Below are positions 3,305 through 62,631 of a stretch of DNA of 64,000 nucleotides, piece after piece. This DNA comes from Patescibacteria group bacterium (GTDB lineage: Bacteria; Patescibacteriota; Patescibacteriia; 2-02-FULL-49-11). The notes beneath the pieces were generated by a model, which saw only the letters and a list, made by a program, of their open reading frames with translations, had not been told where the DNA came from and did no database searches. Both the position numbers and the translations under genes were made by a program. Within the stretch, counting starts at the first letter, position 1. Each line of letters starts with the position of its first letter. The stretch lies in NCBI GenBank assembly GCA_041645165.1, contig JBAZQN010000011.1:1254-65253 (forward strand), given 5' to 3'.

Positions 3305-3349
3305 GATAATAACTGCTCATCTATCACCCATTTTCTGCAGGAACGCTTC

Positions 3350-3437
3350 GGGAACTGACAATTTTGTTCGGCGTCGCGATCAAGCAGCTTGATACGCCTT
3401 TCCGCCTCAAAAATTGCAGTCCCCTCGCTTTTCCATC
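3350..3437 (+). repeat. structured ~85-nt repeat family S (acaattttgttcggcgtcgcgatcaagcagcttgatacgcctttccgcctcaaaaattgc), copy 1
   Basis: Four copies lie in this window (3350, 15723, 34155, 57767). The outer inverted repeats differ between copies but stay complementary. Confidence 0.8.
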
Positions 3438-4859: not shown

Positions 4860-4945
4860 AAAACCCCCTCTTTAGTCTCCCCCTTTCAGGGGGAGAACAT
4901 CCATCAATCGTCCTCCCCTTAAAAAGGGGGAGGATGAAGGTGGGG
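4860..4945 (+). terminator. pair of GC-rich hairpins downstream of murF (tctccccctttcagggggaga; cctccccttaaaaagggggagg)
   Basis: Two perfect 7-8 bp stems with no U-tract. Related C-rich palindromes occur inside the MITE-A copies. Confidence 0.4.
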
Positions 4946-5022: not shown

Positions 5023-5094
5023 GGCCTCTTCGTCTAGCGGCTAGGACATCTGGTTCTCAGCCAGAGAACAGGGGTTCAATTCCCCTAGAGGCTA
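5023..5094 (+). tRNA. tRNA-Glu (anticodon CUC)
   Basis: Manual cloverleaf: acceptor GGCCTCT/AGAGGCT (G1-U72 wobble), D arm GTCT-AGCGGCTA-GGAC, anticodon stem TCTGG/CCAGA with loop TTCTCAG, T arm AGGGG-TTCAATT-CCCCT, discriminator A. No encoded CCA. Confidence 0.8.
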
Positions 5095-7076: not shown

Positions 7077-7185
7077 AGGGGTTTATTCAAGCGTAGAGTA
7101 GCGTGGCAGTTTATCTGCCACCCACCATGTCGCAGACATCCCAGTCATTCGACGGGATAAAAGCTGCGACGCTACAGAGAGCTAA

Positions 7186-7285
7186 GGCGCCGTAAAAAAA
7201 TAACATATCCCGCCATCTACGCCGTACGTCAACAAAATAAGGACAAACCTATGGGACAAGTGAAATGTTATTTTTTTAAGCGCCC
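7186..7285 (+). repeat. ~100-bp dispersed repeat (ggcgccgtaaaaaaataacatatcccgccatctacgccgtacgtcaacaaaataaggacaaacctatgggacaagtgaaatgttatttttttaagcgcc), copy 1
   Basis: A near-identical copy lies at about 52324-52426, nested inside a MITE-A copy. Both copies generate the same spurious ORF start MGQVKCYFFKRP. Confidence 0.85.
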
Positions 7286-7301
7286 TAATGTGCTGAAGGG
7301 C

Positions 7302-8104: not shown

Positions 8105-8264
8105 GATGCATATATACGCTCACTGGCCATCGACACCCCTACCACGCCACTCCCTTTTTACGGGGAGGACATAATCGTTGTTCTCCCCCTCCGGTAGGGG
8201 GAGAATCACGAGAGGGGGTTTCATTCGGGAATACATATCCCCCCAGTGAGCGAGTACAGATGCA
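8105..8264. repeat. MITE-A copy 1: ~160-bp element with imperfect terminal inverted repeats (gatgcatatatacgctcactgg / ccagtgagcgagtacagatgcat)
   Basis: A 12-bp direct repeat gcatttgaatga flanks it. The interior contains the C-rich palindrome tctccccctccggtagggggaga. A second, larger copy lies at 52209-52502. Confidence 0.7.
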
Positions 8265-8962: not shown

Positions 8963-9559
8963 TTGGTATACTGTTTAGAGAAGGAAGATACAAGGTACAA
9001 GAAACAAGTAACAAGAAATTTGATGTTGGATAAAAAGAGTATGCAAATTTCAGGGATAAGCGAAAAAGAATTACAAAAGAAATTGCGGGTGGGGTGGTTT
9101 ACGTTTACCTGCTGCGAGGATTCGACCATTATCATGACGGAAGTCATGAATGAGCATTGGGAAGAATGGAAGCGGTTTATTGATTTCCGCCACGCGCGGG
9201 TGTTGCGGACGGATAATATCCTCGATGAGCTTGACGTGGCGTTTGTGGAAGGCGCCATTTCGTCAGACCGTCAAGCGGCGCGCCTGAAGGAGATCCGCGA
9301 GAAAGCGAAACGCCTCGTGGCAGTAGGGGCGTGCGCGGTCATAGGGATGCCCTCATCCCAGCGCAATTTATTTGACGAGTCCACAAAGCGCGCCATCCAA
9401 TTCCTCGTGGACCGGTTTGGGCAGAAGGAATTGGTGAGGACGGTGAAGGAGCTTGTAAAGGTAGACGCAGAACTACCCGGTTGCCCGATGAATGAACAGA
9501 AATTTCTAGAAGTGTTGGAGAGGTATCTTAAGGAGTTTAATATTATCAAGGGATCATAA
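8963..9559 (+). CDS. [NiFe]-hydrogenase small subunit (NuoB-like Oxidored_q6 fold)
   Basis: Motifs WFTFTCCEDS … GACAVIGMP … GCPMNE match the proximal-cluster Cys ligands of hydrogenase small subunits. The likely true start is the ATG at 9041 (MQISGISEKEL…). It pairs with the large subunit at 11178. Confidence 0.7.
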   Translation: MVYCLEKEDTRYKKQVTRNLMLDKKSMQISGISEKELQKKLRVGWFTFTCCEDSTIIMTEVMNEHWEEWKRFIDFRHARVLRTDNILDELDVAFVEGAISSDRQAARLKEIREKAKRLVAVGACAVIGMPSSQRNLFDESTKRAIQFLVDRFGQKELVRTVKELVKVDAELPGCPMNEQKFLEVLERYLKEFNIIKGS

Positions 9560-9594
9560 CTCACCCCAGCCCTCTCTTATCCTAAGAGAGGGAG
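9557..9594 (+). repeat. HP1 palindromic element TAActcaccccagCCCTCTCTTAtccTAAGAGAGGGag, copy 1 (its TAA is the stop codon of the upstream gene)
   Basis: Perfect 10-bp stem with a 3-nt loop. Identical copies begin at 10514, 10627 and 11077. Three variant hairpins in reverse orientation lie at 14040-14165. Confidence 0.9.
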
Positions 9595-9634
9595 GTTGTC
9601 ATTCTTCATTGGTGTTTTATTAAGGAGAATTATT

Positions 9635-10516
9635 ATGAGACATAAAGGACACAATAGACCTCATGATGTAGCAAGCGAGAAACGCACCGCATGGAAACGT
9701 TCTCACCCGATAACTAAAGAATTGCTGGCCAAGGGCGCACAAAAATTTATGTCGAAAGAAAGACACCCTCAAATCGATAAGGCATTTTCCCCAAAAGTAC
9801 ATTGCGTATGCTGCATGGATGAAGGGACGGCGCATATGGAAAGAGGCAGTAAGCTGTTCATGGCAGGGAGCGGGATATTGTATCCCGCGGCAAGCTGGGA
9901 TGATCGACTTAATCGCGTGGCAGATTTGTTTATTGATTTGCATATCACAGAAATTACCAGCCATGACGGGTGCGGCGCCGCCGGCATTGCGTTTAAGCGG
10001 GATGGGGGGGGAGAAGGCACTGGATGCAAAACAGCTGATGAGTATGGGGAAAAATGGTGCAGTGATTTGCAGGCTATAATGGATACAAAGCTGGACGTGC
10101 CGGAAAATGTGGAGGGTGTACAAAACGTCCATATTCACGAACATGAAATGGAAAGGCCGGGAGAGTTCCATATCGCGAGAGTGGTCTGGTTTGATGCCAC
10201 CGGTGAATTTACCAAACCCGATATGTTGGGGGAGGAGATTCCAAAGGGATTTGCGATAAATTATCATGCGTTCGCTTCACGGGAGATGGGCGGCTATCCG
10301 CTTAGTGAATTGGAAGTGGCTATAAAAATCGCGTTCAGCGATCATGGGTTTGACAAAGAATTTACCAAAGGCCATCCTTTCGTCATTATCGTTATTGCCA
10401 AGGACGAGGATCAGAAGAAAGAAGTAACGGAATTGATTGGTGGAATCATGCAAGAGAAAGAAGAGATCTCGCAATACAAACACAGAATTCGTATTGATGG
10501 TTTTATTCATGAATAA
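9635..10516 (+). CDS. hypothetical Cys-rich protein inserted between the hydrogenase subunit genes
   Basis: SD aaggag 8 nt before the ATG at 9635 (the ORF track opens at an upstream TTG, 9596). Motifs VHCVCCMDEGTAH and SHDGCGAAG. No recognisable family. Bounded by HP1 copies. Confidence 0.5.
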   Translation: MRHKGHNRPHDVASEKRTAWKRSHPITKELLAKGAQKFMSKERHPQIDKAFSPKVHCVCCMDEGTAHMERGSKLFMAGSGILYPAASWDDRLNRVADLFIDLHITEITSHDGCGAAGIAFKRDGGGEGTGCKTADEYGEKWCSDLQAIMDTKLDVPENVEGVQNVHIHEHEMERPGEFHIARVVWFDATGEFTKPDMLGEEIPKGFAINYHAFASREMGGYPLSELEVAIKIAFSDHGFDKEFTKGHPFVIIVIAKDEDQKKEVTELIGGIMQEKEEISQYKHRIRIDGFIHE

Positions 10517-10551
10517 CTCACCCCAGCCCTCTCTTATCCTAAGAGAGGGAG
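10514..10551 (+). repeat. HP1 copy 2
   Basis: Same 38-nt element; its TAA is the stop codon of the 9635..10516 gene. Confidence 0.9.
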
Positions 10552-10664
10552 CCATTATTCCTCCTCGTGGTAAAGACCAATCTCTATGGAGTTCTGGAGA
10601 CAATTCTGCACATTCTTAAGGATTCGTAACTCACCCCAGCCCTCTCTTATCCTAAGAGAGGGAG
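10552..10664 (+). repeat. remnant of a tandem duplicate of the HP1-linker-DUF559 unit (linker stub, last 61 nt of the DUF559 ORF, HP1 copy 3)
   Basis: 10569-10629 is identical to the 3' end of the DUF559 gene (11019-11079). It is followed by a complete HP1, then the linker hairpin HP2 plus SD plus ATG of the intact gene. Confidence 0.8.
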
Positions 10665-10707
10665 CCATTATTCCTCCTCTTAAGGTAAGAGGAGGTAAGG
10701 AGGAGTT

Positions 10708-11079
10708 ATGAAGGCAACAAATCGGACATATAATGATCGAGAATTGAAATCGTTAAGAAGAACATTACGGAAGAATTTTACCGATCAAGAGAGATTATTG
10801 TGGAGTAAATTGCGCAATAGGCAATTAGACGGACATAAGTTTTATCGGCAATACGGTGTTGGTCGTTATGTGGTAGACTTTTATTGTCCTGAAAAACGAA
10901 TTGTAATTGAATTAGACGGAGGGCACCATACCGAGAAGACGAACCTTCAGCTTGATGCTGAAAGGGATAAGGCATTGAACACCCTCAACATTCGAGTATT
11001 AAGATTTTGGAACCATGAGGTAAAGACCAATCTCTATGGAGTTCTGGAGACAATTCTGCACATTCTTAAGGATTCGTAA
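10708..11079 (+). CDS. DUF559 / Vsr-like endonuclease-domain protein
   Basis: 123 aa with C-terminal motifs …VDFYCPEKRIVIELDGGHHTEK…DAERDKALNTLNIRVLRFWNHEV typical of the DUF559 restriction-endonuclease-like fold. Preceded by HP2 (cctcctcttaaggtaagaggagg) plus SD ggaggagtt plus ATG. Confidence 0.7.
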   Translation: MKATNRTYNDRELKSLRRTLRKNFTDQERLLWSKLRNRQLDGHKFYRQYGVGRYVVDFYCPEKRIVIELDGGHHTEKTNLQLDAERDKALNTLNIRVLRFWNHEVKTNLYGVLETILHILKDS

Positions 11080-11160
11080 CTCACCCCAGCCCTCTCTTAT
11101 CCTAAGAGAGGGAGCCATTATTTCTCCTCTTAAGGTAAGAGGAGGTAAGGAGGAGTTATG
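11077..11160 (+). repeat. HP1 copy 4 plus HP2-SD-ATG linker, exact duplicate of 10627-10710
   Basis: The 84-nt identity supplies an SD and ATG at 11158, opening a 10-codon mini-ORF that overlaps the large-subunit start at 11178. Confidence 0.9.
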
Positions 11161-11177
11161 ATTTATAACGTTACGTT

Positions 11178-12488
11178 ATGCATAAAATAGATTTTGATCT
11201 CTCATTGGAAGAGGTTACCAAAATAGAGGGCGCAGCGACTTTGAGCGTGAAAGTGCGGGATGCAAAGGTGGAGGAGTGCAAGTTCGGCATCGCCGAGTAT
11301 AAAAGGTTTTATACGCAGGCGATGGTGGGAAAGCCCGCCTCTGCGCTCCCGCAGCATTTGGCGCGCATCTGCGGCACCTGCTCAAACGCCCATATCATGG
11401 CGTCGCTCGATGCAGTGGAGCACGCACTGGGCATTGTCCCTTCGGCGCAAACGAAGGTGTTGCGCGCGCTTACGATGGATGGGCTCATGATCCGCGACCA
11501 TGCGCTTCATCTTTATCTTTTTTCCTTACCTGACCTTTTAGGAAAAGACTCGATTCTCGCATTGGATGAAAATGATCCGGAAGAACACCAGCTGCTCCAT
11601 GACGCGTTTGACGTCAAGGCCGCGGGTAATCACTTGTCGCAGCTTGTGGCAGGCAGGAGCGTGCATGCGCCGATGCCGGTGGTGGGAGGTTTTTTGAAAA
11701 TACCAGATTCCGCGGGCATTGAGAAATCTCGGCGGGAACTCGAGCAAATAAGGCCTGCTCTACTGCGGCTGATAGGCGTATACGGGAAAAGTACATTTAT
11801 TCTTCTTTCCAAGACCAATTATGTGGCGCTTACCGCCAATCCGTACAGTTTCTTGCAGGGAGATCTTTGCGCGAGCAATGTTGCGTGCATTCCGGAAGAG
11901 CAGTTTATGGAGCATTTAAGCCATGTGGTGGTGCCTTATTCGCAGGCCTCCGCCTACGCGTTCCAGGGAGAGCTTTATCGGGTTGGCGCTTTGGCTCGCT
12001 TGAATTTGAACAAAGATGCGCTCAATCCCCGCACGAAAGCGGACGCTGCCCAATATCTTGCACGGTTCCCTTCAGATAACGCATATGATAACAATCTCGC
12101 GCAGGCAATCGAAATCCTGCACTGCATAGATGAGGCGCTGGAGATGCTCTCTACCCATTCATTCCATGCAGAGACGCCGCAAAAGGCGAACCCTCATGCG
12201 GGCGAGGGCATTGGCGTGATTGAGGCTCCCCGCGGCACGCTCTACCATAAGGTGGAGCTGGATGAAAAGGGGATAGTCACGCACGGCGACATCGTGGTGC
12301 CCACGGGGCAGAACCAGCTCGCCATTGAATGGGATATCAAGCAGTTAGTGGAGCAGTGGTTGAAGGAGGGGAAGGAGATTGGGAATAAAAAAGCGCTCGA
12401 ACATGAAATCGAGCAGCTTATCCGCGCGTACGACCCTTGCATGAGCTGCGCGGCGCATTTTTTGGAAGTTACGTGGGATGAAGCATAG
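11178..12488 (+). CDS. [NiFe]-hydrogenase large subunit
   Basis: N-terminal RICGTCSNAH (RxCGxCxxxH, L1) and C-terminal DPCMSCAAH (DPCxxCxxH, L5) Ni-Fe ligand motifs. 436 aa fits a group-3-type enzyme. Confidence 0.85.
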   Translation: MHKIDFDLSLEEVTKIEGAATLSVKVRDAKVEECKFGIAEYKRFYTQAMVGKPASALPQHLARICGTCSNAHIMASLDAVEHALGIVPSAQTKVLRALTMDGLMIRDHALHLYLFSLPDLLGKDSILALDENDPEEHQLLHDAFDVKAAGNHLSQLVAGRSVHAPMPVVGGFLKIPDSAGIEKSRRELEQIRPALLRLIGVYGKSTFILLSKTNYVALTANPYSFLQGDLCASNVACIPEEQFMEHLSHVVVPYSQASAYAFQGELYRVGALARLNLNKDALNPRTKADAAQYLARFPSDNAYDNNLAQAIEILHCIDEALEMLSTHSFHAETPQKANPHAGEGIGVIEAPRGTLYHKVELDEKGIVTHGDIVVPTGQNQLAIEWDIKQLVEQWLKEGKEIGNKKALEHEIEQLIRAYDPCMSCAAHFLEVTWDEA

Positions 12489-14010: not shown

Positions 14011-14039
14011 ACGCGGAGAAATACGGTTCGTAACTCCTC

Positions 14040-14165
14040 CCCGCCTCCTCTTATCCTAAGAGGAGGAGTCGATTTTGGCCTTCCCTCTTATTTTAAGAGG
14101 GAAGATTTGATGCATCACCCTCTCTTAAAGTAAGAGAGGGATGGGGTGAGTTACGAGAAACGAGG
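14040..14165 (-). repeat. three HP1/HP2-type hairpins in reverse orientation (cctcctcttatcctaagaggagg, ccctcttattttaagaggg, ccctctcttaaagtaagagaggg) plus cgtaactcacccca
   Basis: This is the reverse complement of the ctcaccccag-hairpin unit. The DMT transporter ORF reads through it for about 23 codons. Confidence 0.8.
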
Positions 14166-15049
14166 GGAGTTATGAGTTTTCGCGTGCCCCAGATGAGGAG
14201 AGTGGAACCAAGAACGACCAATACGCCGTTATATACTTGAGGCAGCGTGATTGAATGGGTGATAAATATTCCACTCATGACGTTTGTTATGAGCGTCGCA
14301 GGCACCAGAAGCGCCGTGGCAACGGTGACGGGCAATTTTTTAAGCGCGCTATACCACGTGGTGACATACCCCAAGAGCAGCAGTGCGGTGAGCAAGGTCC
14401 ATCCCCATTGCATAGCATTCAGATGCACTATGGCGCCGCTGCCGTCCTTGAGCGCAAGAATAAGGAAAAGGAAGAGCGATCCTACTGCCATGCGCGCGCC
14501 CGCAACCGTGAGGCTTGAGATATTGGCCAATGCCTTTTTGGCAACGACATTCTCAAGCGCCCAAAATACGGTCGCCATCAGCACCAGCGCCTCACCTATG
14601 TTGAAATTAAATTTAGGAAATCCCAATGCGAGGTTACCGCCGAAAAGCAGAAGGAGGGCGGCTATCTGGGTAATGCCTATATGTTCTTTTAATAGAGGAA
14701 CAGCAAAAATGGCAGCCCAGAGGAAGAGGGTTTTATGGATGAATGCGGCACTGAGGGCGGGTATCATGGAGAGGCCTGTGAAGTAGAGGATAAAGGGCAC
14801 GCATCCGCCGATGACCGCAATGAAGAGCAGTTGGAGCGCTTGAGAAGATTTTAGTGAAATTAATTCTTTCCATCTCTTCGTGAGAAGAATAATTCCTACA
14901 AGCGTCGCGCCCACAAGCGCATTTCGTAGAGTGGTGGAGAGTATGGGATCCTTGAGCGCGGTCACTGCGATCTTTGTTAAAAAATTATTGGTGCCGGAAA
15001 AGAATGCGGTAGCAAGCGCGAGCATGATACCCTTGGTAGCATTGTTCAT
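14093..15049 (-). CDS. DMT-superfamily (EamA-like) transporter, 10 TM
   Basis: Two repeated 5-TM halves with hydrophobicity typical of EamA. The C-terminal ~23 aa are encoded by the repeat cluster. Confidence 0.7.
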   Translation of the reverse strand: MNNATKGIMLALATAFFSGTNNFLTKIAVTALKDPILSTTLRNALVGATLVGIILLTKRWKELISLKSSQALQLLFIAVIGGCVPFILYFTGLSMIPALSAAFIHKTLFLWAAIFAVPLLKEHIGITQIAALLLLFGGNLALGFPKFNFNIGEALVLMATVFWALENVVAKKALANISSLTVAGARMAVGSLFLFLILALKDGSGAIVHLNAMQWGWTLLTALLLLGYVTTWYSALKKLPVTVATALLVPATLITNVMSGIFITHSITLPQVYNGVLVVLGSTLLIWGTRKLITPLVSRNSPHPSLTLREGDASNLPS

Positions 15050-15198: not shown

Positions 15199-17661
15199 TC
15201 ACTTTTTTAAATATACAAACACTTTTGTGGAACCAATCGTTGCCGTGTGGTCTGCGTCAAGAGAAGCGCGTGCGGATATCTTTTCTGCATCAAGCCAGTA
15301 AGAGTTAAGGACAAAATATGCGCGCGTGACACCCACAAGATCCATGGCGTTTTCCATTGTTACGCGAGATGCTTTTTGGTACACCATGTTGAGGTAGAAT
15401 TGATAGAGAGGTGAAGAGGTGGGAATGGGGTAATAGAATATAGTTTGACAGTCTGCAGTTTGGCAGTTTTTCAGTTTAAAGTATTTTTTAAAGCCGAATT
15501 CTTGCAGGGCGGCGGCGGCTATGGATTGGTTGGAAAGGACGATATGCGGCTCGTTCCCCGCGTTGGCTTCTATCCAATGCGCCGTGTCTATATCCGTTTG
15601 GGAGACAGAAAAGCCGCGGCTTTTGGAAAAGGCATCGACGCGGGGGTACGTGTAGTAGAAAGAAATGGTGATGAGGCAGGTGAATATTACGAGAGAAAGA
15701 ATTATCGATTTTGTTCCCGTTTGGGGATGGACAATTTTGTTCGGCGTCGCGATCAAGCGACCCTCGCGCCTTTCCGCCTCAAAAATTGCCATCCCCTCAC
15801 TGTCATTAATTATGACAGAATATAGTTCTCTACAGGAAAAGAGGGAGGAGATAGATCGATATAGTGTAATAATAAAGAGGGGAAGTATGGTGAGTCCTAT
15901 AAGGTCGAGGATACGTTCGGTAAACTCTGGGCGCTCATATGCGATCATCGCGGTGAGGGGAAGTGTGCGGATAAAAAGGTAATTGATGAAGAGGACCAGC
16001 GCAGTGAGCCATAAAGCGAGTGGGTATTTGTTTTCTTTGCGACGCAATAGCAGGTACGTCCCTGCCAAGGCGCCGATGAAGAAAAGGAGAGGGAGCGCTC
16101 GCATCCAGAGCTCGCTTGTGTGTGCGAGGGAGAGGAAAGGTAGGTAGTGGGGAATGAGATTGGGAAGTGGGAGCGCGTCAGCATATAAGGGTGCAATGCC
16201 CCCGTAGAGCTTGTTTGCCACCATAATCGCGGCAGGAAGCCCAAGCGAGCTCAATATGCTGATTATAATAGTTAAAACACGGGAGATACGTGGAGAAGTA
16301 TTATTCTGCACGGTTATATATGAAAGGAGCATGAGGGCAGGAATACCGGTGATGGGATGGATAAATATTATGCAAAACGCAATACCCCAGAGCAAGGATA
16401 GTGGTAAGTGGCGATGAAGGCATGATAAGGAAAGCAAAACGAGGATGAGATAAAAAAGGTTCGCAAGCGATTGCGGCACCGTGGCGATAAAAAGCGAGGG
16501 GGGGATGATGAGGAGCGAAAGAATTGTAATGAGTAAAAGATGTGTTTTTTGAAAATATTTTTTCAGTGTGAAAATTCCAATAATGGGAATGAGAATGCTT
16601 GCGAGGACAGGCAGAAGCCAGAGGTCAATGAGCGGAAGGGGAATCAGCATCACTTTTGAGAGAAAGACTACAAGGACATATTGCCCAAGATATGACAAAG
16701 GAGGCGGGGTGAGCAAGCCAGTTTCGAAGATAATTTTTTCAGTCGCACGGTGGATAAACGGATCAAAGCCATATCCGATGCGGTAGATGAGGAGCGCGAG
16801 AGAGAGGGTGAAGAAAAAATGAAATAATAGGAGTATTAGTTTGATCGAAGAAAAGGACGCGGGATCCGCTCGGGATGGTTCTCGGCGAACACGCGTCCCC
16901 GCCTCCTGCCCCGCCATGCGGGGCTCCGCCTCACCAGTCCCACTCCCGATAGTATCGGGAGACCATGCTGGGGCTGGCTCCGGAGGGTTCGCCAGAGAAC
17001 CAATCCCTCGCTGAGAGGTCAAGAACGGAAACTTCCTAGATGCTTTTATCCCCGACCAAGCCTCTTCTTTACGGGAGAAAAGAAATAAGAGAATAAAGGT
17101 AGCAAGTGCATAGAGATAAAGGAGCGAGTGGGGAAGGACTTCCCATGGTGTGCGTATTGAGGCGTCGGTGCGATGGTCGAGAATGAGGTTTATGGATATA
17201 GCGAAGAGGGTGAGATATGCAAAGGTAAGGAGTGTGGGGACAAGATATTTATTGAGCGGCAGTCGAGTATGTATTGGCTGTGATTCCGGTTTAGTATCAG
17301 CAGGGGGCTGGCGCTTGGTGCGAAGAAATAGGATTACATAACCGGCAAGAGGGATGAAGAACGTTATTGCGGTAATAGCGTACTCATTGAATGCCGCGAG
17401 GCGAAAATATGTGGATCCAGCGAGAATAACGAGCACAAGAACCGAGAGGAAGCCAAGAGTGTATTGTTCAATCCTTTCGCGGGAAGGCGCAAAAATGTTG
17501 CCCCAAAGCACGCACGAAACAACGAGCCAGAGGATGCTAAATGTAATCCCAATAATGAGAGAGTGGAAAAAGAAAAGGTTGAGCGCGAGTCCTGCAGGGA
17601 GCAGAAGCAAAATGGCGATTTTCGTAGCACGAGATTTTGTTAATATGTGGTAAGGGCGCAT
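15199..17661 (-). CDS. large polytopic membrane protein (possible GT-C-type glycosyltransferase) with two in-frame repeat insertions
   Basis: 820 aa, more than 12 predicted TM helices, soluble C-terminal domain. Repeat S copy 2 (15723-15804) encodes …INDSEGMAIFEAERREGRLIATPNKIVHPQTG…. A GC-rich composite palindrome (about 16878-17001) encodes a Pro/Gly-rich loop. Confidence 0.5.
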   Translation of the reverse strand: MRPYHILTKSRATKIAILLLLPAGLALNLFFFHSLIIGITFSILWLVVSCVLWGNIFAPSRERIEQYTLGFLSVLVLVILAGSTYFRLAAFNEYAITAITFFIPLAGYVILFLRTKRQPPADTKPESQPIHTRLPLNKYLVPTLLTFAYLTLFAISINLILDHRTDASIRTPWEVLPHSLLYLYALATFILLFLFSRKEEAWSGIKASRKFPFLTSQRGIGSLANPPEPAPAWSPDTIGSGTGEAEPRMAGQEAGTRVRREPSRADPASFSSIKLILLLFHFFFTLSLALLIYRIGYGFDPFIHRATEKIIFETGLLTPPPLSYLGQYVLVVFLSKVMLIPLPLIDLWLLPVLASILIPIIGIFTLKKYFQKTHLLLITILSLLIIPPSLFIATVPQSLANLFYLILVLLSLSCLHRHLPLSLLWGIAFCIIFIHPITGIPALMLLSYITVQNNTSPRISRVLTIIISILSSLGLPAAIMVANKLYGGIAPLYADALPLPNLIPHYLPFLSLAHTSELWMRALPLLFFIGALAGTYLLLRRKENKYPLALWLTALVLFINYLFIRTLPLTAMIAYERPEFTERILDLIGLTILPLFIITLYRSISSLFSCRELYSVIINDSEGMAIFEAERREGRLIATPNKIVHPQTGTKSIILSLVIFTCLITISFYYTYPRVDAFSKSRGFSVSQTDIDTAHWIEANAGNEPHIVLSNQSIAAAALQEFGFKKYFKLKNCQTADCQTIFYYPIPTSSPLYQFYLNMVYQKASRVTMENAMDLVGVTRAYFVLNSYWLDAEKISARASLDADHTATIGSTKVFVYLKK
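15723..15804 (+). repeat. repeat family S copy 2, in-frame inside the 15199..17661 gene
   Basis: The outer stem ggggatgg…ccatcccc covaries relative to the other copies. Confidence 0.8.
16878..17001. repeat. GC-rich composite palindrome (ggttctcggcgaac … ccccgccatgcgggg … ctcccgatagtatcgggag … gttcgccagagaacc) inside the coding sequence
   Basis: Nested perfect palindromes. GC far above the host gene. It encodes a low-complexity PPEPAPAWSPDTIGSGTGEAEP segment. Confidence 0.55.
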
Positions 17662-34130: not shown

Positions 34131-34154
34131 AATTATTGTGTGTAAAAATGCTCG

Positions 34155-34240
34155 TGATGGGACGATTTTATTCGGCGTCGCGATCTAGCAGCTTGATGCG
34201 CCTTTCCGCCTCAAAAATCGCCCATCCCTCGCTTCATAGG
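34155..34240 (+). repeat. repeat family S copy 3
   Basis: Outer stem gatggg…cccatc. The internal acgatttt/aaaatcgc change is compensated on both arms. Confidence 0.8.
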
Positions 34241-48078: not shown

Positions 48079-49494
48079 ATGCCATACCGAATCGCGCATA
48101 TCACCCCCGTGTACCCGCCTTATGCAGGCGGTATTGGGGTTGTGGCGAAAAATATGGCGGGAGGGTTGGCAGGAAGAAGATGGCAAGTGGAAACGTTTAC
48201 GCCCACGTTGGATAACTCCACCCAACCTCCTCTTAAGTTAAGAGGAGGGGAAGGAGGAGTTATGGATAATAAAATAACGTATCTCAAACCATGGTTGCAT
48301 GTGGGCAATGCGGCGCTCGTGCCGCAATTAAGGAAATTAGAAGGATACGATATCATTCATCTGCATTATCCTTTTTTCGGCGGGGCTGAATTTGTTCTTC
48401 TGGGTATAATTTTTCAACGATTTAATTCCGCGTTTTTCAGCGATAAGGCCACGCGTGACGTTCCGCGTAAGTCAGCGTTCATTTTACAATACCATCATGA
48501 CGCAGACGCTAAAGGTTTGAAGGGGATGATGTTTAAACTTTATGACAGGATTGTGCTCCCGCGTTTGATCACGCGCGCCGACAGGGTGATCGTATCAGCG
48601 ATGGATTATGCGCAACATTCACGCATTGCGAAATACATAAGCGATAAGTTTGTCGAAATACCGTTTGGGGTTGATGCGAAACGATTTGAACCGTTAGGTA
48701 GTCATTCTGAACGTAGTGAAGAATCTCCCGTGCATACGGGCACACCGCTGGCATTCGCCAGAGATCCTTCCCCCGACTCGCGGGGTCAGGATGACAAATC
48801 CGTTATTGTTCTCTTCGTCGGTTCCCTCGACCGCGCGCATTGGTTTAAAGGGTTAGAGGTATTACTTCACGCGTTCGCCATACTGAAACAAGAAAATGAA
48901 CAAAATCGTTTAAAATCTACTCATTTAAACCCTACCCTAAATACCACGAGCCAACTTCGCCATAGTAGCCAAAGGCTACGTCGGCTGAATCGTGGTAATC
49001 CTGCCTGCGCAGGCAGGAGGGAGGGATTGAATTTGAAATGTTTGGTTATAGGCGAAGGTAATCTTAAAGAGAAATATAAAAAAATGGCACAAGATTTAGG
49101 GATTCAAGACCAAGTGCAGTTTTTTGGCAACGTGTCTCAAACGCAATTGCCTGATTATTACCGCAACGCGGACCTTTTTGTGTTTCCTTCGGTATCGCGC
49201 GCGGAAGCATTCGGATTGGTGGCGCTTGAAGCAATGGCGTCAGGTTTGCCCGTCATCGTAAGCGATCTGCCGGGAGTGCGGACGCTGGTGGAAGAGGGGA
49301 TAAACGGATTTAAGGTGCCTGTGAATGATCCACGTGCGTTGGCGCGACGCATTCAGGATCTGATTGAAGATAAGTCACTACGCGGCAGTATGGGACAAAA
49401 AAGCAGAGAAAAGGTTTTAGAGGGTTATACATGGGATAAGGCTATTGACAAGATAGAGAGAGTGTACTTAGATATGTTGGTAAATAAACCATGA
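48079..49494 (+). CDS. GT4 glycosyltransferase with three in-frame repeat-derived insertions
   Basis: N-terminus MPYRIAHITPVYPPYAGGIG. C-terminus EAFGLVALEAMASGLPVIVSD (Glycos_transf_1). Insertions: 48216-48273 (HP2 hairpin plus ggaggagttATG), 48701-48794 (RPE-like), about 48900-49030 (palindromes gccatagtagcc…ggctacg and cctgcctgcgcaggcagg). Confidence 0.75.
   Translation: MPYRIAHITPVYPPYAGGIGVVAKNMAGGLAGRRWQVETFTPTLDNSTQPPLKLRGGEGGVMDNKITYLKPWLHVGNAALVPQLRKLEGYDIIHLHYPFFGGAEFVLLGIIFQRFNSAFFSDKATRDVPRKSAFILQYHHDADAKGLKGMMFKLYDRIVLPRLITRADRVIVSAMDYAQHSRIAKYISDKFVEIPFGVDAKRFEPLGSHSERSEESPVHTGTPLAFARDPSPDSRGQDDKSVIVLFVGSLDRAHWFKGLEVLLHAFAILKQENEQNRLKSTHLNPTLNTTSQLRHSSQRLRRLNRGNPACAGRREGLNLKCLVIGEGNLKEKYKKMAQDLGIQDQVQFFGNVSQTQLPDYYRNADLFVFPSVSRAEAFGLVALEAMASGLPVIVSDLPGVRTLVEEGINGFKVPVNDPRALARRIQDLIEDKSLRGSMGQKSREKVLEGYTWDKAIDKIERVYLDMLVNKP
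48216..48273 (+). repeat. HP2-SD-ATG element (cctcctcttaagttaagaggagg ggaaggaggagttATG) inserted in-frame inside the GT4 gene
   Basis: Same module that precedes the DUF559 and hydrogenase-large-subunit starts. It creates an internal SD plus ATG at 48271. Confidence 0.8.
48701..48794 (+). repeat. RPE-like palindromic element, copy 2 (in-frame in GT4)
   Basis: gtcattctgaacgtagtgaagaatctccc…agatccttcccccgactcgcggggtcaggatgac encodes HSERSEESPVHTGTPLAFARDPSPDSRGQDD. Confidence 0.85.
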
Positions 49495-52208: not shown

Positions 52209-52502
52209 GTATCTCATACGTACGCGCTCACTGTCCATCAACACCCCCACCACACCTCCCCCTTTATATCATCAAGATATGGCGAAGCCATAGGGGGAGG
52301 ACAAGGCGTGTGGTCTCCCCCTTAGGCGCCGTAAAAAAATAACATATCCCGCCATCTACGCCGTACGTCAACAAAATAAGGACAAACCTATGGGACAAGT
52401 GAAATGTTATTTTTTTAAGCGCCCTTATCAAGGGGGAGATCAAGAGGGGGGTTTAAACCGCGAGGATGGCGATGCCCCCAGTGAGCGCGTACATCTCATA
52501 CC
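52209..52502. repeat. MITE-A copy 2 (TIRs ggtatctcatacgtacgcgctcactg / cagtgagcgcgtacatctcatacc) with nested 25-bp and 100-bp elements
   Basis: Its interior aligns with copy 1 except for the inserted catcaagatatggcgaagccata (also at 1466) and the 100-bp repeat (also at 7186). Confidence 0.75.
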
Positions 52503-57755: not shown

Positions 57756-57766
57756 CTTCGTTCGTC

Positions 57767-57848
57767 CTGGACAATTTTCTCGGCGGCGCGATCTAGCAGC
57801 TTGATGCGCCAGACCGCCTCGTAAATTGCCAGGACTCACTTTTAGGGA
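57767..57848 (+). repeat. repeat family S copy 4
   Basis: Outer stem cctgg…ccagg. Confidence 0.8.
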
Positions 57849-61407: not shown

Positions 61408-62592
61408 TTATAATTTATCTAAAGCCTGTTCTAGGTCCATAATAAGGTCCTTCATATCTTCAATCCCCACGGACATGCGGATAAGGGTGTCTGAAATGCC
61501 AAGCTGCGTGCGCAGTGCGGACGGGAGGGAAGCGTGCGTCATGCGCGCGGGGTGCTCGATAAGCGATTCCACCCCCCCGAGGCTTTCTGCCAGGGAGAAA
61601 ATGCGAAGCGATGACAAGAATTGCTTTGCATCGTCGAGGCCTCCTTTGAGTTCGAAAGAGATAATTCCGCCGAATCCTGTCATTTGCTTTTTGGCGAGTT
61701 CGTATTGCGGATGACTCGGAAGCCCCGGATAAATGACGCGGGCAATGTGAGAGTGGCGCGCTAACCGCAGCGCGATCTTCCGCGCATTTTTTTCATGCTT
61801 TTCCATACGGAGCGCGAGCGTTTTTATACCCCGCAGCACGAGCCAGCAATCGAAGGGAGAAGGCACGGCACCGGCGGCATTTTGGATAAATTTAAGCTGC
61901 TGATACACATCGCTGCGGTTCGTGATAACTGCGCCTCCTACTGCGTCACTATGCCCTCCGATGTACTTGGTGGTGCTATGGAGAGAAATATCCGCACCCA
62001 ATGAGAGCGGCTTTTGGAAATAGGGCGAGGCAAACGTATTATCCACTACCACGAGCGCGTCAGGATTTTGCTTCTTGGCGCACGCGGCGATCTTTTGGAT
62101 GTCGCAGAGTTTCAGGAGGGGATTGGTGGGTGTCTCCAACCATATCATTTTTGTTCGTTTCGAAATGAAATCCGTTATCGTTTCCGGCGATGAAAGATCC
62201 GCATAGGAAAATGTGATATCGAATTTAATGGCAATCATGTCAAACAGCCGCCGTGTGCCTCCATAGAGATCATCGCAGGCAATCGCCTCATCTCCGTGTT
62301 TTAAGAGTTTCATCACGCTATCAATCGCCGCAAGGCCTGAAGCGAAGGCAAGGCTGTGCGCGGCATATTCAAGGCTCGCAAGCACCAATTCAAGCGCATG
62401 GCGCGTGGGATTGCCTGTCCGGGAATATTCGTATCCCTGGGTAGGAGATTCCACCTCCTTGCGGGCGAACGTCGTTGCCATATGAATCGGCACCACGACA
62501 TCGCCGCTCCCTCCTTCTTTGAGGTTTGGTTCTTGGCCAATGTGTATTGCGCGGGTAGCAAATTGCATAGTGGGAGAAAGAGACCTCCCCAT
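61408..62592 (-). CDS. PLP-dependent cystathionine gamma-synthase/lyase-family enzyme (Cys/Met metabolism)
   Basis: Cys_Met_Meta_PP signature …STTKYIGGHSDAVGGAV… with the PLP lysine region. 394 aa. Confidence 0.8.
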   Translation of the reverse strand: MGRSLSPTMQFATRAIHIGQEPNLKEGGSGDVVVPIHMATTFARKEVESPTQGYEYSRTGNPTRHALELVLASLEYAAHSLAFASGLAAIDSVMKLLKHGDEAIACDDLYGGTRRLFDMIAIKFDITFSYADLSSPETITDFISKRTKMIWLETPTNPLLKLCDIQKIAACAKKQNPDALVVVDNTFASPYFQKPLSLGADISLHSTTKYIGGHSDAVGGAVITNRSDVYQQLKFIQNAAGAVPSPFDCWLVLRGIKTLALRMEKHEKNARKIALRLARHSHIARVIYPGLPSHPQYELAKKQMTGFGGIISFELKGGLDDAKQFLSSLRIFSLAESLGGVESLIEHPARMTHASLPSALRTQLGISDTLIRMSVGIEDMKDLIMDLEQALDKL

Positions 62593-62631
62593 CCCCTCCT
62601 TGCTAAGGAGGGGACTTGAGGGGCGGTTTCC

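Follow-up and report, generated by a model that had tools for sequence, protein, structure and literature searches.

Short palindromic repeats that occur in many near-identical copies, and with the same sequence in distant taxa, have been described in bacteria as BoxC, PIT or TMECO elements (Bachellier 1990s; Hoyne et al. 2000; Holder et al. 2015, PMC4666352). Their unit of about 35 nt, present singly or in inverted pairs, is made up of a pyrimidine (Y) arm, a loop, a purine (R) arm, a second loop and a third arm mirroring the R arm (class II purine motif), and the repeats are tied to local rearrangement. In vitro, triplex formation by single-stranded DNA has been shown only for the TMECO of E. 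coli; no triplex was seen in vivo, the E. coli TMECO included, and the paper characterising these abundant repeats reported no linked mobility function (PMC4666352). BoxC/PIT repeats have lacked an explanation since the 1990s. REP and REPIN repeats and their RAYT gene (REPtron) combine one small nuclease-type gene between inverted cognate hairpin repeats with many gene-less copies, co-variation of enzyme and repeat, and no obvious target-site duplication. Rickettsia palindromic elements (RPE), of about 100-150 bp and restricted to Rickettsia, lack a triplex-type arm; they lie in-frame in housekeeping genes of a reduced genome, where they are tolerated as extra surface peptide, and we know of no nuclease gene linked to them. 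MITEs with expression signals, such as the Correia elements of Neisseria, have terminal inverted repeats and can bring signals near host genes. The repeat described below shares with BoxC/PIT/TMECO the three-arm anatomy, the unit size, the single or paired arrangement, the many near-identical copies in distant taxa and the tie to local rearrangement, with REPtrons the features just listed, with RPE the in-frame position in a reduced genome, and with Correia-type MITEs the short form with terminal inverted repeats able to carry expression signals.

The window, the whole stretch of 64,000 nt of Patescibacteria DNA that was analysed, contains a GT4 glycosyltransferase gene interrupted in-frame by a palindromic repeat (Table 1). 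This site is likely to be one solo copy of a BoxC/PIT/TMECO-type repeat with the class II purine motif, belonging to a family linked to DUF559 genes. The ITxF definition (PMC4666352) prescribes arms of 6-15 nt with at most one mismatch, loops of 1-6 nt and a 3' third arm forming an antiparallel mirror through G.GC, A.AT or T.AT triplets; the site has arms of 9 nt with no mismatch, loops AAGTT (5 nt) and GGAA (4 nt), and nine triplets out of nine. As a Y arm, a complementary R arm and a mirroring third arm of G, A and T are thus combined, single-stranded DNA could fold into these triplets, and might do so in vivo. Because third-arm flanks sit on both sides, the palindrome spans 52 nt, and its C-rich flank pairs with the G-rich flank in predicted RNA and single-stranded DNA folds.

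Table 1 Features of the repeat family in the window, with one candidate oligonucleotide
Feature	Position	Strand	Remarks
GT4 glycosyltransferase gene, 471 aa	48079..49494	+	hosts the insertion and two more repeat-derived in-frame inserts
Palindromic repeat, complete, 52 nt, ATAACTCCACCCAA-CCTCCTCTTAAGTTAAGAGGAGG-GGAAGGAGGAGTTAT	48212..48263	.	in-frame in GT4, residues ~45-62 (D)NSTQPPLKLRGGEGGV(M)
C-rich flank AACTCCACC	48214..48222	+	complement of minus-strand third arm GGTGGAGTT
Pyrimidine (Y) arm CCTCCTCTT	48226..48234	+	
Purine (R) arm AAGAGGAGG	48240..48248	+	Watson-Crick partner of Y arm
Third (reverse-Hoogsteen-type) arm GGAGGAGTT	48253..48261	+	exact R-arm mirror, 9/9 G.GC / A.AT / T.AT; initially read as Shine-Dalgarno sequence
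ATG in conserved terminus GTTATGA	48262..48264	+	Met62 of GT4
Two-hairpin composite	10627..10710	+	TAACTCACCCC flank, hairpin 10640-10662, spacer, hairpin 10673-10695, third arm 10699-10707, ATG 10708
DUF559 (Vsr-like PD-(D/E)XK) putative nuclease gene	10708..11079	+	start = ATG of element; stop = TAA of next element
Two-hairpin composite, second copy	11077..11160	+	ATG 11158 opens 10 codons only
Truncated composite 10514-10566 joined to 57-nt DUF559 3'-end copy 10570-10626	10514..10626	+	
Single unit, same repeat family, flank TAACTCACCCC and hairpin	9557..9592	-	TAA = stop of upstream Oxidored_q6 gene
Three-hairpin composite, outward flanks 14031-14155	14031..14174	.	extra third-arm-like GAGGGGAGTTATG 14161-14174
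TTA-dialect sequence, third arm intact (candidate triplex oligonucleotide) CCTCCTCTTAAGTTAAGAGGAGGGGAAGGAGGAGTT			

With small corrections of position, the unit of hairpin, Shine-Dalgarno-like stretch and ATG reported in the initial annotation was found, as CCTCCTCTTAAG(G/T)TAAGAGGAGG followed by (T/G...)AAGGAGGAGTTATG, at 10673-10710, 11123-11160 and 48226-48264. Its perfect 10-bp stem was as described except at 11123-11160, where the first stem base is T and the stem is therefore 9 bp. It had gone unnoticed that GGAGGAGTTAT and the (C)ATAACTC... flank 5' of related hairpins are reverse complements of each other. The hairpin pattern was found at five sites in the window and in none of 100 shuffles, and 14 intrastrand triplex motifs were counted against none in 20 Markov simulations; every copy in the window has 8-9 perfect triplets. 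A local duplication of 143 nt (10569-10711 / 11019-11161) holds two of the three unit copies, which had been named as a possible source of the whole set; the repeat nevertheless occurs at no fewer than 120 loci elsewhere.

The mirror rule was examined in 416 distinct units, among which 54 different purine arms occur. A was mirrored by A or T at 96% of positions and G by G at 97.7%, and the third-arm score was 7.77 out of 8 with a unit's own arm, 6.46 with a swapped arm and 6.65 when the arm was read directly instead of as a mirror. The copies in the window, with the consensus CCYCYCTTA-N3-TAAGRGRGG and GGRGRGTTA in place of CCCTCNCCC...GGGNGAGGG, do not match the strict TMECO/BoxC pattern CCCTCNCCC N3-6 GGGNGAGGG N3 GGGNGAGGG; they are of the same class and of a different sequence family. 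The three-arm class itself had been described before (Holder et al. 2015, PMC4666352), and the TTA...TAA version is a new sequence dialect of it. A literature match on the strings GGGAGAGGG and GGGTGAGGG pointed to the triplex paper (PMC4666352), while the raw TTA-dialect string retrieved nothing useful. Rfam searches, with gathering thresholds as well as with permissive E-values, returned only a tRNA and noise.

The initial annotation had taken the unit for a mobile module that provides whatever lies downstream with a hairpin, a Shine-Dalgarno sequence and an ATG, and the GT4 copy for an internal start that could give a truncated isoform, a reading we consider unlikely. It agrees with the presence of AAGGAGG 4 nt 5' of the ATG of the GT4 copy, a plausible Shine-Dalgarno sequence, and with the start of DUF559 genes at the ATG of the element, in the window as well as at loci L024, L053, L100, L124, L150 and L157. 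Two host genes, encoding HsdR (L049) and a SufD-like protein (L068), apparently start there too. Apart from these, the ATG is usually no gene start: an ORF of at least 60 codons follows only 10 of 62 such ATGs (the other 52 being shorter), against 26% of random ATGs, and a general supply of initiation signals is not supported. A gene starts at the ATG of the element at one of four sites in the window. The ATG at 11158 had been taken for the start of the hydrogenase large subunit, but the NiFe large-subunit ORF begins at 11178 in another frame, and the weaker relative noted at 14161 does carry a third-arm-like sequence but has an ATG (14172) that opens only 22 codons. Both orientations of the element are about equally frequent, and the supposed Shine-Dalgarno sequence varies together with the hairpin in the manner of a mirror repeat, following the triplex rule and not an anti-Shine-Dalgarno rule. 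In the predicted RNA folds, moreover, the Shine-Dalgarno-like arm, along with the beginning of the AUG, pairs with the other flank; the arm is paired in the minimum free energy fold (-28.7 kcal/mol, z = -4.6), and the whole AUG is paired in the composites at 10620-10720 and 11070-11170. On the preferred reading, as a triplex-type repeat, the "Shine-Dalgarno plus ATG" would be the third arm together with the conserved terminus GTTATGA, which in a gene-carrying form would serve as ribosome-binding region and start codon of the DUF559 gene.

The in-frame reading ...QPPLKLRGGEGGVMDNK... in GT4 was given correctly; the ATG placed at 48271 lies at 48262-48264 and is that of Met62. A protein starting at Met62 would be without the beta1-alpha1-beta2 elements of the Rossmann fold and the invariant PPY.GG.G loop, which makes an N-terminally truncated isoform unlikely. 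With a third arm that is a plausible Shine-Dalgarno sequence, and an ATG that apparently serves as start of two host genes, a degree of internal initiation within GT4 could still take place. The closest homologs have some 10 residues fewer at the position of the repeat, and because they are only 66-67% identical, the exact boundaries of the insertion are not fixed by this comparison. In the AF2 model (pLDDT 81.8), values below 50 were obtained only at residues 51-61 and at the two other repeat inserts; the repeat falls in a loop, modelled as disordered, that connects two beta strands. The repeat may have landed, or been retained, in the only stop-free frame and within a variable surface loop, where it would add about 17 disordered residues that are tolerated and would have no role in translation. 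The GT4 site by itself stands as a tolerated repeat insertion and not as a new route to protein isoforms. That the palindrome is an assembly artefact or has arisen by chance hardly merits belief: the source is a metagenome-assembled genome, in which repeats can misassemble, but the frame is kept, the insert has GT4 sequence to its left and right, an identical full-length protein is on record at NCBI (P0001), in-frame copies of the same kind are present in eight other genes from independent assemblies, and zero matches are expected by chance.

In the hydrogenase operon, copies of the repeat fill the intercistronic spacers and adjoin stop and start codons. Together with the high predicted stability of the RNA hairpins, this would suit an RNA-level cis element, REP-like, acting on operon transcripts as a stabiliser, attenuator or terminator. 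We consider such a role very unlikely, as copies occur in both orientations and also within coding regions, no match to Rfam was obtained, and the mirror third arm is without a Watson-Crick rationale, purine-motif triplexes not being formed by RNA (PMC4666352). The suggestion of a terminator hairpin in particular fails on the sequence that follows the hairpins, G-rich arms with no T-run, and the PIT elements of E. coli were found to act neither as promoters nor as terminators (PMC4666352). As a preferred stop codon, the left-flank TAA was not enriched (13% vs 9%).

The TTA dialect, with termini TCATAAC... and ...GTTATGA, was found at a minimum of 120 loci, and the phyla represented include Nitrospirota, Desulfobacterota, Patescibacteria, Chloroflexota and Pseudomonadota. 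In other Patescibacteria, in-frame copies lie in the genes for ThrRS, PrmC, MurB, a Mur ligase, Fmt, MutM and transketolase, whereas the TMECOs of E. coli are reported to be always intergenic. The pairs in the window also differ from an inverted pair of strain O157:H7 Sakai (Holder Table S8) in having their third arms outward instead of inward.

A further difference from the published BoxC/PIT/TMECO repeats, which were described without an associated mobility gene, is the consistent adjacency of DUF559 (Pfam PF04480), the sole recurrent family in a clustering of neighbouring genes. It was present at 9 of the 120 loci selected by pattern. Strict TTA-N3-TAA hairpins lie beside only about 13 of 80 DUF559 genes, so that the triplex rule was needed for wider detection. 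When 80 metagenome loci selected by protein were surveyed with it, the motif was found on the coding strand upstream of DUF559 in 38 of 77 cases and inverted downstream in 46 of 75 (background 0.097 per kb). Inverted copies around DUF559 genes are hence about 50-fold over background, with some 40-50% of the genes lacking the motif on a given side under strict criteria. The same dialect was found on both sides at 30 of 33 loci (13 expected), and DUF559 proteins that share a dialect are 55% identical, those of different dialects 46%, a result not reached in any of 1000 permutations; shared host phylogeny could account for this co-variation. Repeat and gene form a discrete unit of 430-470 nt, since nucleotide similarity between unrelated contigs ends at the outer edges of the repeats, and in the TTA-dialect units examined the start codon of DUF559 is the ATG of the element. 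In E. coli, ycjD has one TMECO and one degenerate TMECO beside it. Literature searches on DUF559 with repeats or hairpins, on ycjD and on in-frame palindromes in Patescibacteria gave no link between DUF559 and repeats. A partial duplicate of the DUF559 3' end was seen at only 3 of 87 loci and is not a general signature.

The TAAC/GTTA termini and the cassette-array-like topology, with ORFs bounded by an upstream GTTATG and a downstream TAAC, recall a site for site-specific recombination, attC-like as in integrons or dif-like, with DUF559 as the gene cassette. This is highly improbable: TCATAAC and GTTATGA miss the attC core consensus (RYYYAAC / GTTRRRY), the hairpins have a spacer of 3 nt, no integrase or recombinase gene occurs in those parts of the window that were surveyed, and it is DUF559, not an integrase or recombinase, that recurs near the elements. 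The mismatch of the core sites and the lack of a recurrent recombinase led to rejection of the integron reading.

The initial annotation also called the repeat mobile, and its portability is evident from the distribution described above; because neither a clean empty site nor a target-site duplication was found in the comparisons examined, transposition is put forward as a proposal. No duplication was visible at the intragenic copies or at the ends of the DUF559 units. In ThrRS, the boundaries of the insertion are not clean because the two Uhrbacteria sequences compared differ across the whole variable region, and presence or absence in the yjdP-phnP spacer of E. coli resembles deletion at short CCCTC repeats, without duplication. 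As in a MITE, the terminal inverted repeats of the solo copies (TCATAAC... / ...GTTATGA) are common to a gene-carrying element, for they also bracket DUF559. To our knowledge, DUF559 is not among the known transposases. Unlike Correia-type MITEs, the element shows no visible TA or other duplication and has no known DDE partner, and its RBS-like arm is accounted for by the mirror rule. Its gene encodes a Vsr-like PD-(D/E)XK protein and not a HUH Y1 transposase as in REPtrons; a GTAG-type tetranucleotide is absent, the mirror third arm is present and one dialect crosses phyla. Membership of REP/RAYT was rejected, as neighbour clustering gave only DUF559 and no HUH Y1 (RAYT) gene beside the repeats.

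A DUF559 gene bracketed by two inverted copies would be the gene-carrying form of the element, and solo copies such as that in GT4 are probably its non-autonomous, MITE- or REPIN-like derivatives. The putative nuclease may be what spreads the repeats, by recognising or mobilising them. More broadly, BoxC/PIT-type repeats might represent the terminal repeats, and derivatives without the gene, of a selfish element found throughout bacteria. Its enzyme would be DUF559 (YcjD-family, Vsr-like), recognising the hairpin-plus-third-strand fold, the elements would also have colonised essential genes of Patescibacteria in-frame, and the solo "Shine-Dalgarno plus ATG" would be the fossil start of the nuclease gene; this is a tentative proposal, possible but short of probable. 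Counts of TMECOs per E. coli strain are available in the tables of Holder et al. (PMC4666352). The ycjD gene is reported to be present in phylogroups A, B1 and C, while the locus in B2 has eefRABCD instead; ST69 and ST182 also have ycjD. The tabulated strains that we take to belong to phylogroups A, B1 and C have 13-30 TMECOs (almost all 19-30), and those presumed to be B2 have 1-2. These counts point the same way, toward a link with ycjD, in a comparison confounded by phylogeny.

The main interest lies beyond the single GT4 site, in the consistent presence of the repeats beside DUF559 genes. This oriented, co-varying link with one small nuclease family provides a testable candidate both for the recogniser or spreader of the repeats and for the function of DUF559/YcjD. 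With in-frame copies in their ThrRS, Mur enzymes, Fmt, transketolase and GT4, Patescibacteria offer a second case, after Rickettsia, of palindromic repeats shaping the proteins of a reduced genome, and the stereotyped peptide ...HN(P/S)xQP(P/S)LxLRGG... can be expected in annotation.

The hairpin arms CCTCCTCTTA and TAAGAGGAGG, followed by AAGGAGGAGTTATG, are present at the three places described in the initial annotation. The element is real and far from chance: its hairpin core occurs at five sites in the window and at none in 100 shuffles. GGAGGAGTTAT is the reverse complement of a (C)ATAACTC(C/A)... flank that is located upstream of related hairpins at 9557, 10514, 10627, 11077, and 14031; the order of the element is, thus, flank, one to three hairpins, and inverted flank. 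In the copy inside the glycosyltransferase gene GT4, a single hairpin between both flanks makes up a 52-nt palindrome. The loci listed share the consensus TCATAAC-TCCCCC-n-CCCCTCTTA-nnn-TAAGAGGGG-n-GGGGGA-GTTATGA. The flank co-varies with the stem as the mirror image of its purine arm: GAGGGG goes with GGGGAG, GGGAGG with GGAGGG or GGTGGG, GAGAGG with GGTGAG, and GAGGAGG with GGAGGAG. Watson-Crick pairing does not explain this relation while, judged from the sequences, a purine-motif triple helix (G.GC, A.AT, T.AT) can.

A sequence-string search led to the study of Holder et al. (2015; PMC4666352), the rules of which were used to write a triplex-motif finder for this analysis. It detected 14 motifs in the window and none across 20 simulated windows, and all window copies contained 8-9 perfect triplets. 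The triplet rule was obeyed at 96-98 % of the positions in a set of 416 distinct units (54 purine arms), outperforming arm-swapped and non-mirror controls. By its sequence, the window repeat is a member of the BoxC/PIT/TMECO class II intrastrand triplex motifs, which are abundant in prokaryotes and consist of a pyrimidine arm, a loop, a purine arm, a loop, and a mirror arm (PMC4666352). Single-stranded DNA of the E. coli element forms a stable triplex in vitro, while none is detectable in vivo, and RNA does not support triplexes of the purine motif (PMC4666352). The E. coli element has neither promoter nor terminator activity, marks variable regions, and has had no transposase or integrase found in its neighbourhood (PMC4666352). 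The window repeat lies outside the TMECO sequence pattern and represents the same class in a different dialect. Moreover, the E. coli elements are intergenic without exception (PMC4666352), whereas the GT4 copy is intragenic. To a known repeat class, the window feature adds a new dialect and a novel, intragenic location.

Repeats and host genes in the window
Feature	Position	Remarks
Hairpin followed by AAGGAGGAGTTATG	10673-10710, 11123-11160, 48226-48264	
Direct 143-nt duplication	10569-10711 / 11019-11161	Takes in the final 57 nt of DUF559
Intercistronic spacers, [NiFe]-hydrogenase operon	8963-12488	DUF559 unit and four repeat copies
Oxidored_q6, same operon	8963-9559	
Unknown ORF, same operon	9596-10516	
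NiFeSe_Hases, same operon	11178-12488	
GT4 gene	48079-49494	471 aa, identical to NCBI 'Patescibacteria group bacterium' GT4
GT4 palindrome	48212-48263	52 nt
Other-dialect triplex-type composites (TCTCCCCCT.., TCCCCTCCTT..)	4862-4945, 8130-8220, 62582-62628	First: immediately upstream of tRNA-Glu (5023-5094); second: diverged, inverted relative of the first
Separate 83-nt repeat family	3348-3430, 15721-15803, 34152-34234, 57760-57842	4 copies
Separate 108-nt repeat pair	7182-7289 / 52321-52428	98 % identity
Heptamer arrays (ATACGTA/ATACCTA-type units)	30869, 32216, 46851, 57408	Directly upstream of several ORFs

The suggestion that the repeat is portable was borne out by a species-level scan (one genome each) with the pattern CCYCYCTTANNNTAAGRGRGG, which gave at least 120 loci in Nitrospirota, Desulfobacterota/Geobacter, many Patescibacteria, Chloroflexota, Pseudomonadota, and others. 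On a contig labelled Methanoregula, an archaeon (L106), a unit was seen together with its flank (TAACTCACCCCGCC-CCTCTCTTAATTTAAGAGAGG); this could reflect bin contamination or transfer. In several phyla, a second hairpin type, CCTGCC..GGCAGG, adjoins or lies within triplex-type units (loci L006, L043, L050, L077, L105, and L121), in L121 between the element hairpin and the third arm.

The mechanism put forward initially, a mobile module supplying translation-initiation signals to downstream genes, appears to be mostly wrong. The ATG at 11158, taken as the start of the hydrogenase large subunit, opens only 10 codons, the NiFe-hydrogenase ORF starting at 11178 in another frame, and the ATG at 14172 of a weaker relative opens an ORF of 22 codons, so that the DUF559 start at 10708 is the sole real gene start. 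One local duplication of 143 nt holds two of the three hairpin-AAGGAGGAGTTATG copies. In three cases in the operon, the TAA of the repeat flank terminates the ORF upstream. Among the 120 loci listed, the ATG of 62 GTTATG termini opened a median of 16 codons, and ORFs of at least 60 codons followed in 10 of the 62, as against 26 % for random ATGs. The long ORFs fall into three groups: DUF559 genes, internal methionines of longer ORFs, and two host genes apparently starting exactly at the terminal ATG, namely HsdR, a type I restriction R subunit (L049, ATG ~4223), and a SufD-like gene (L068, ATG ~2060). Start use is thus occasional and exceptional. What stands of the original proposal is that the DUF559 start is truly carried by the element. 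The flank is about equally frequent on either side (53 and 46 units; both flanks in 27). In predicted RNA folds, the opposite flank pairs with the Shine-Dalgarno (SD)-like arm and also reaches the AUG, pairing with its initial bases and, in the composites at 10620 and 11070, with all of it. Predicted energies were -28.7 kcal/mol (z = -4.6) for the GT4 site and -46 and -43 for the composites.

The internal ATG of GT4 is located at 48262-48264 (Met62) instead of at 48271. A functional truncated isoform, as had been envisaged, is unlikely because a start at Met62 would remove beta1-alpha1-beta2 and the invariant P13 P14 Y15 G17 G18 G20 loop. The element is located in a loop of variable length that joins the strands VEVFTP and ITYLKP; homologs with 66-67 % identity have ~10 residues fewer there. 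In the AlphaFold model (pLDDT 81.8, pTM 0.82), pLDDT falls below 50 solely at residues 51-61, encoded by this element, and at 208-237 and 288-315, which are other repeat-derived inserts. In the DNA, the two further in-frame inserts of GT4 lie at 48700-48800 and 48890-49040 (...SERSEESPVHTG...GQDDK; ...NPACAGRREG with hairpin CCTGCCTGCGCAGGCAGG); they are predicted to be disordered by AF2 and partly common to the homologs P0002 and P0003. GT4 reads the element in the one frame, of three, that contains no stop. Complete elements occur in the same frame within genes for ThrRS, PrmC, MurB, Mur ligase, Fmt, MutM, and transketolase (twice) of other Patescibacteria, and the in-frame copies encode a stereotyped peptide, (H)N(P/S)xQP(P/S)LxLRGG.... 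In an Uhrbacteria genome (L110, 3644-5314, minus strand), a PDDEXK_3 nuclease domain and MurB share a single open frame with in-frame repeat copies also within the MurB part.

Among ORFs within 60 nt of hairpins in the loci listed, DUF559, a Vsr-like PD-(D/E)XK family of putative nucleases, was the only recurrent family, present in 9 of 120 pattern-selected loci. In the window and most of these nine, the gene is bracketed directly by a hairpin plus third arm upstream and an inverted flank plus hairpin downstream. When loci were selected by protein only (80 loci retained from 570 relatives), the coding-strand motif was present just upstream in 38/77 and the inverted motif just downstream in 46/75; with a background of 0.097 per kb elsewhere in these loci, this is a roughly 50-fold enrichment. 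Inspection revealed many additional loci with imperfect-arm motifs and varied dialects (...TTT/AAA..., CCCTCTCCC/GGGAGAGGG/GGGTGAGGG, and others). Both sides of the gene carry the same dialect in 30 of 33 loci (13 expected), and DUF559 proteins are 55 % identical within a dialect versus 46 % otherwise, a difference reached in 0 of 1000 permutations, part of which could stem from host phylogeny. Between unrelated contigs, nucleotide similarity is restricted to the 430-470 nt of repeat, DUF559, and repeat, starting at the outer boundary of the upstream pyrimidine arm. In the aligned and translated units of the TTA dialect, that of the window (window, L024, L053, L100, L124, L150, and L157), the ATG of GTTATGA is the DUF559 start (MKF... 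or MKA...). Repeat, DUF559, and repeat bear the marks of a discrete unit that is probably mobile, and the 'SD + ATG' of solo copies would then be a piece inherited from its end. The association had no match in the literature searched and is the part worth following up; of the DUF559 relatives, only one has a solved structure (3HRL, from structural genomics).

Neither an empty site nor a target duplication was detected for the intragenic copies, the unit ends, the ThrRS genes of two Uhrbacteria, or the E. coli yjdP-phnP spacer. In this spacer (L202-L205), K-12 carries a motif pair and an extra 70-nt segment, O157 one motif, and strain 131 and MCJCHV-1 none, CGCCCCTCACC being retained in MCJCHV-1. 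The sequences of these variants suggest that rearrangement or deletion took place at short CCCTC repeats, without clean target duplication. A degenerate motif lies at the stop codon of E. coli ycjD, the type DUF559 gene, and a TMECO follows after another ~170 nt. Between the gene and a TMECO lies a partial duplicate of the gene's 3' end (L201); such copies after DUF559 are rare (3/87 loci). TMECO counts per strain are available (Holder et al. 2015, Tables S1/S7; PMC4666352), and ycjD, replacing eefRABCD, is present in phylogroups A, B1, and C and in ST69 and ST182 (PMC12817139). In B2, eefRABCD occupies the ycjD locus and 1-2 TMECOs are found. With Holder's strains assigned to what we take to be their phylogroups, A/B1/C have 13-30 TMECOs (almost all 19-30), B2 1-2, and D/E/F 6-15. 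The match between TMECO count and ycjD presence across phylogroups is suggestive, albeit confounded by phylogeny.
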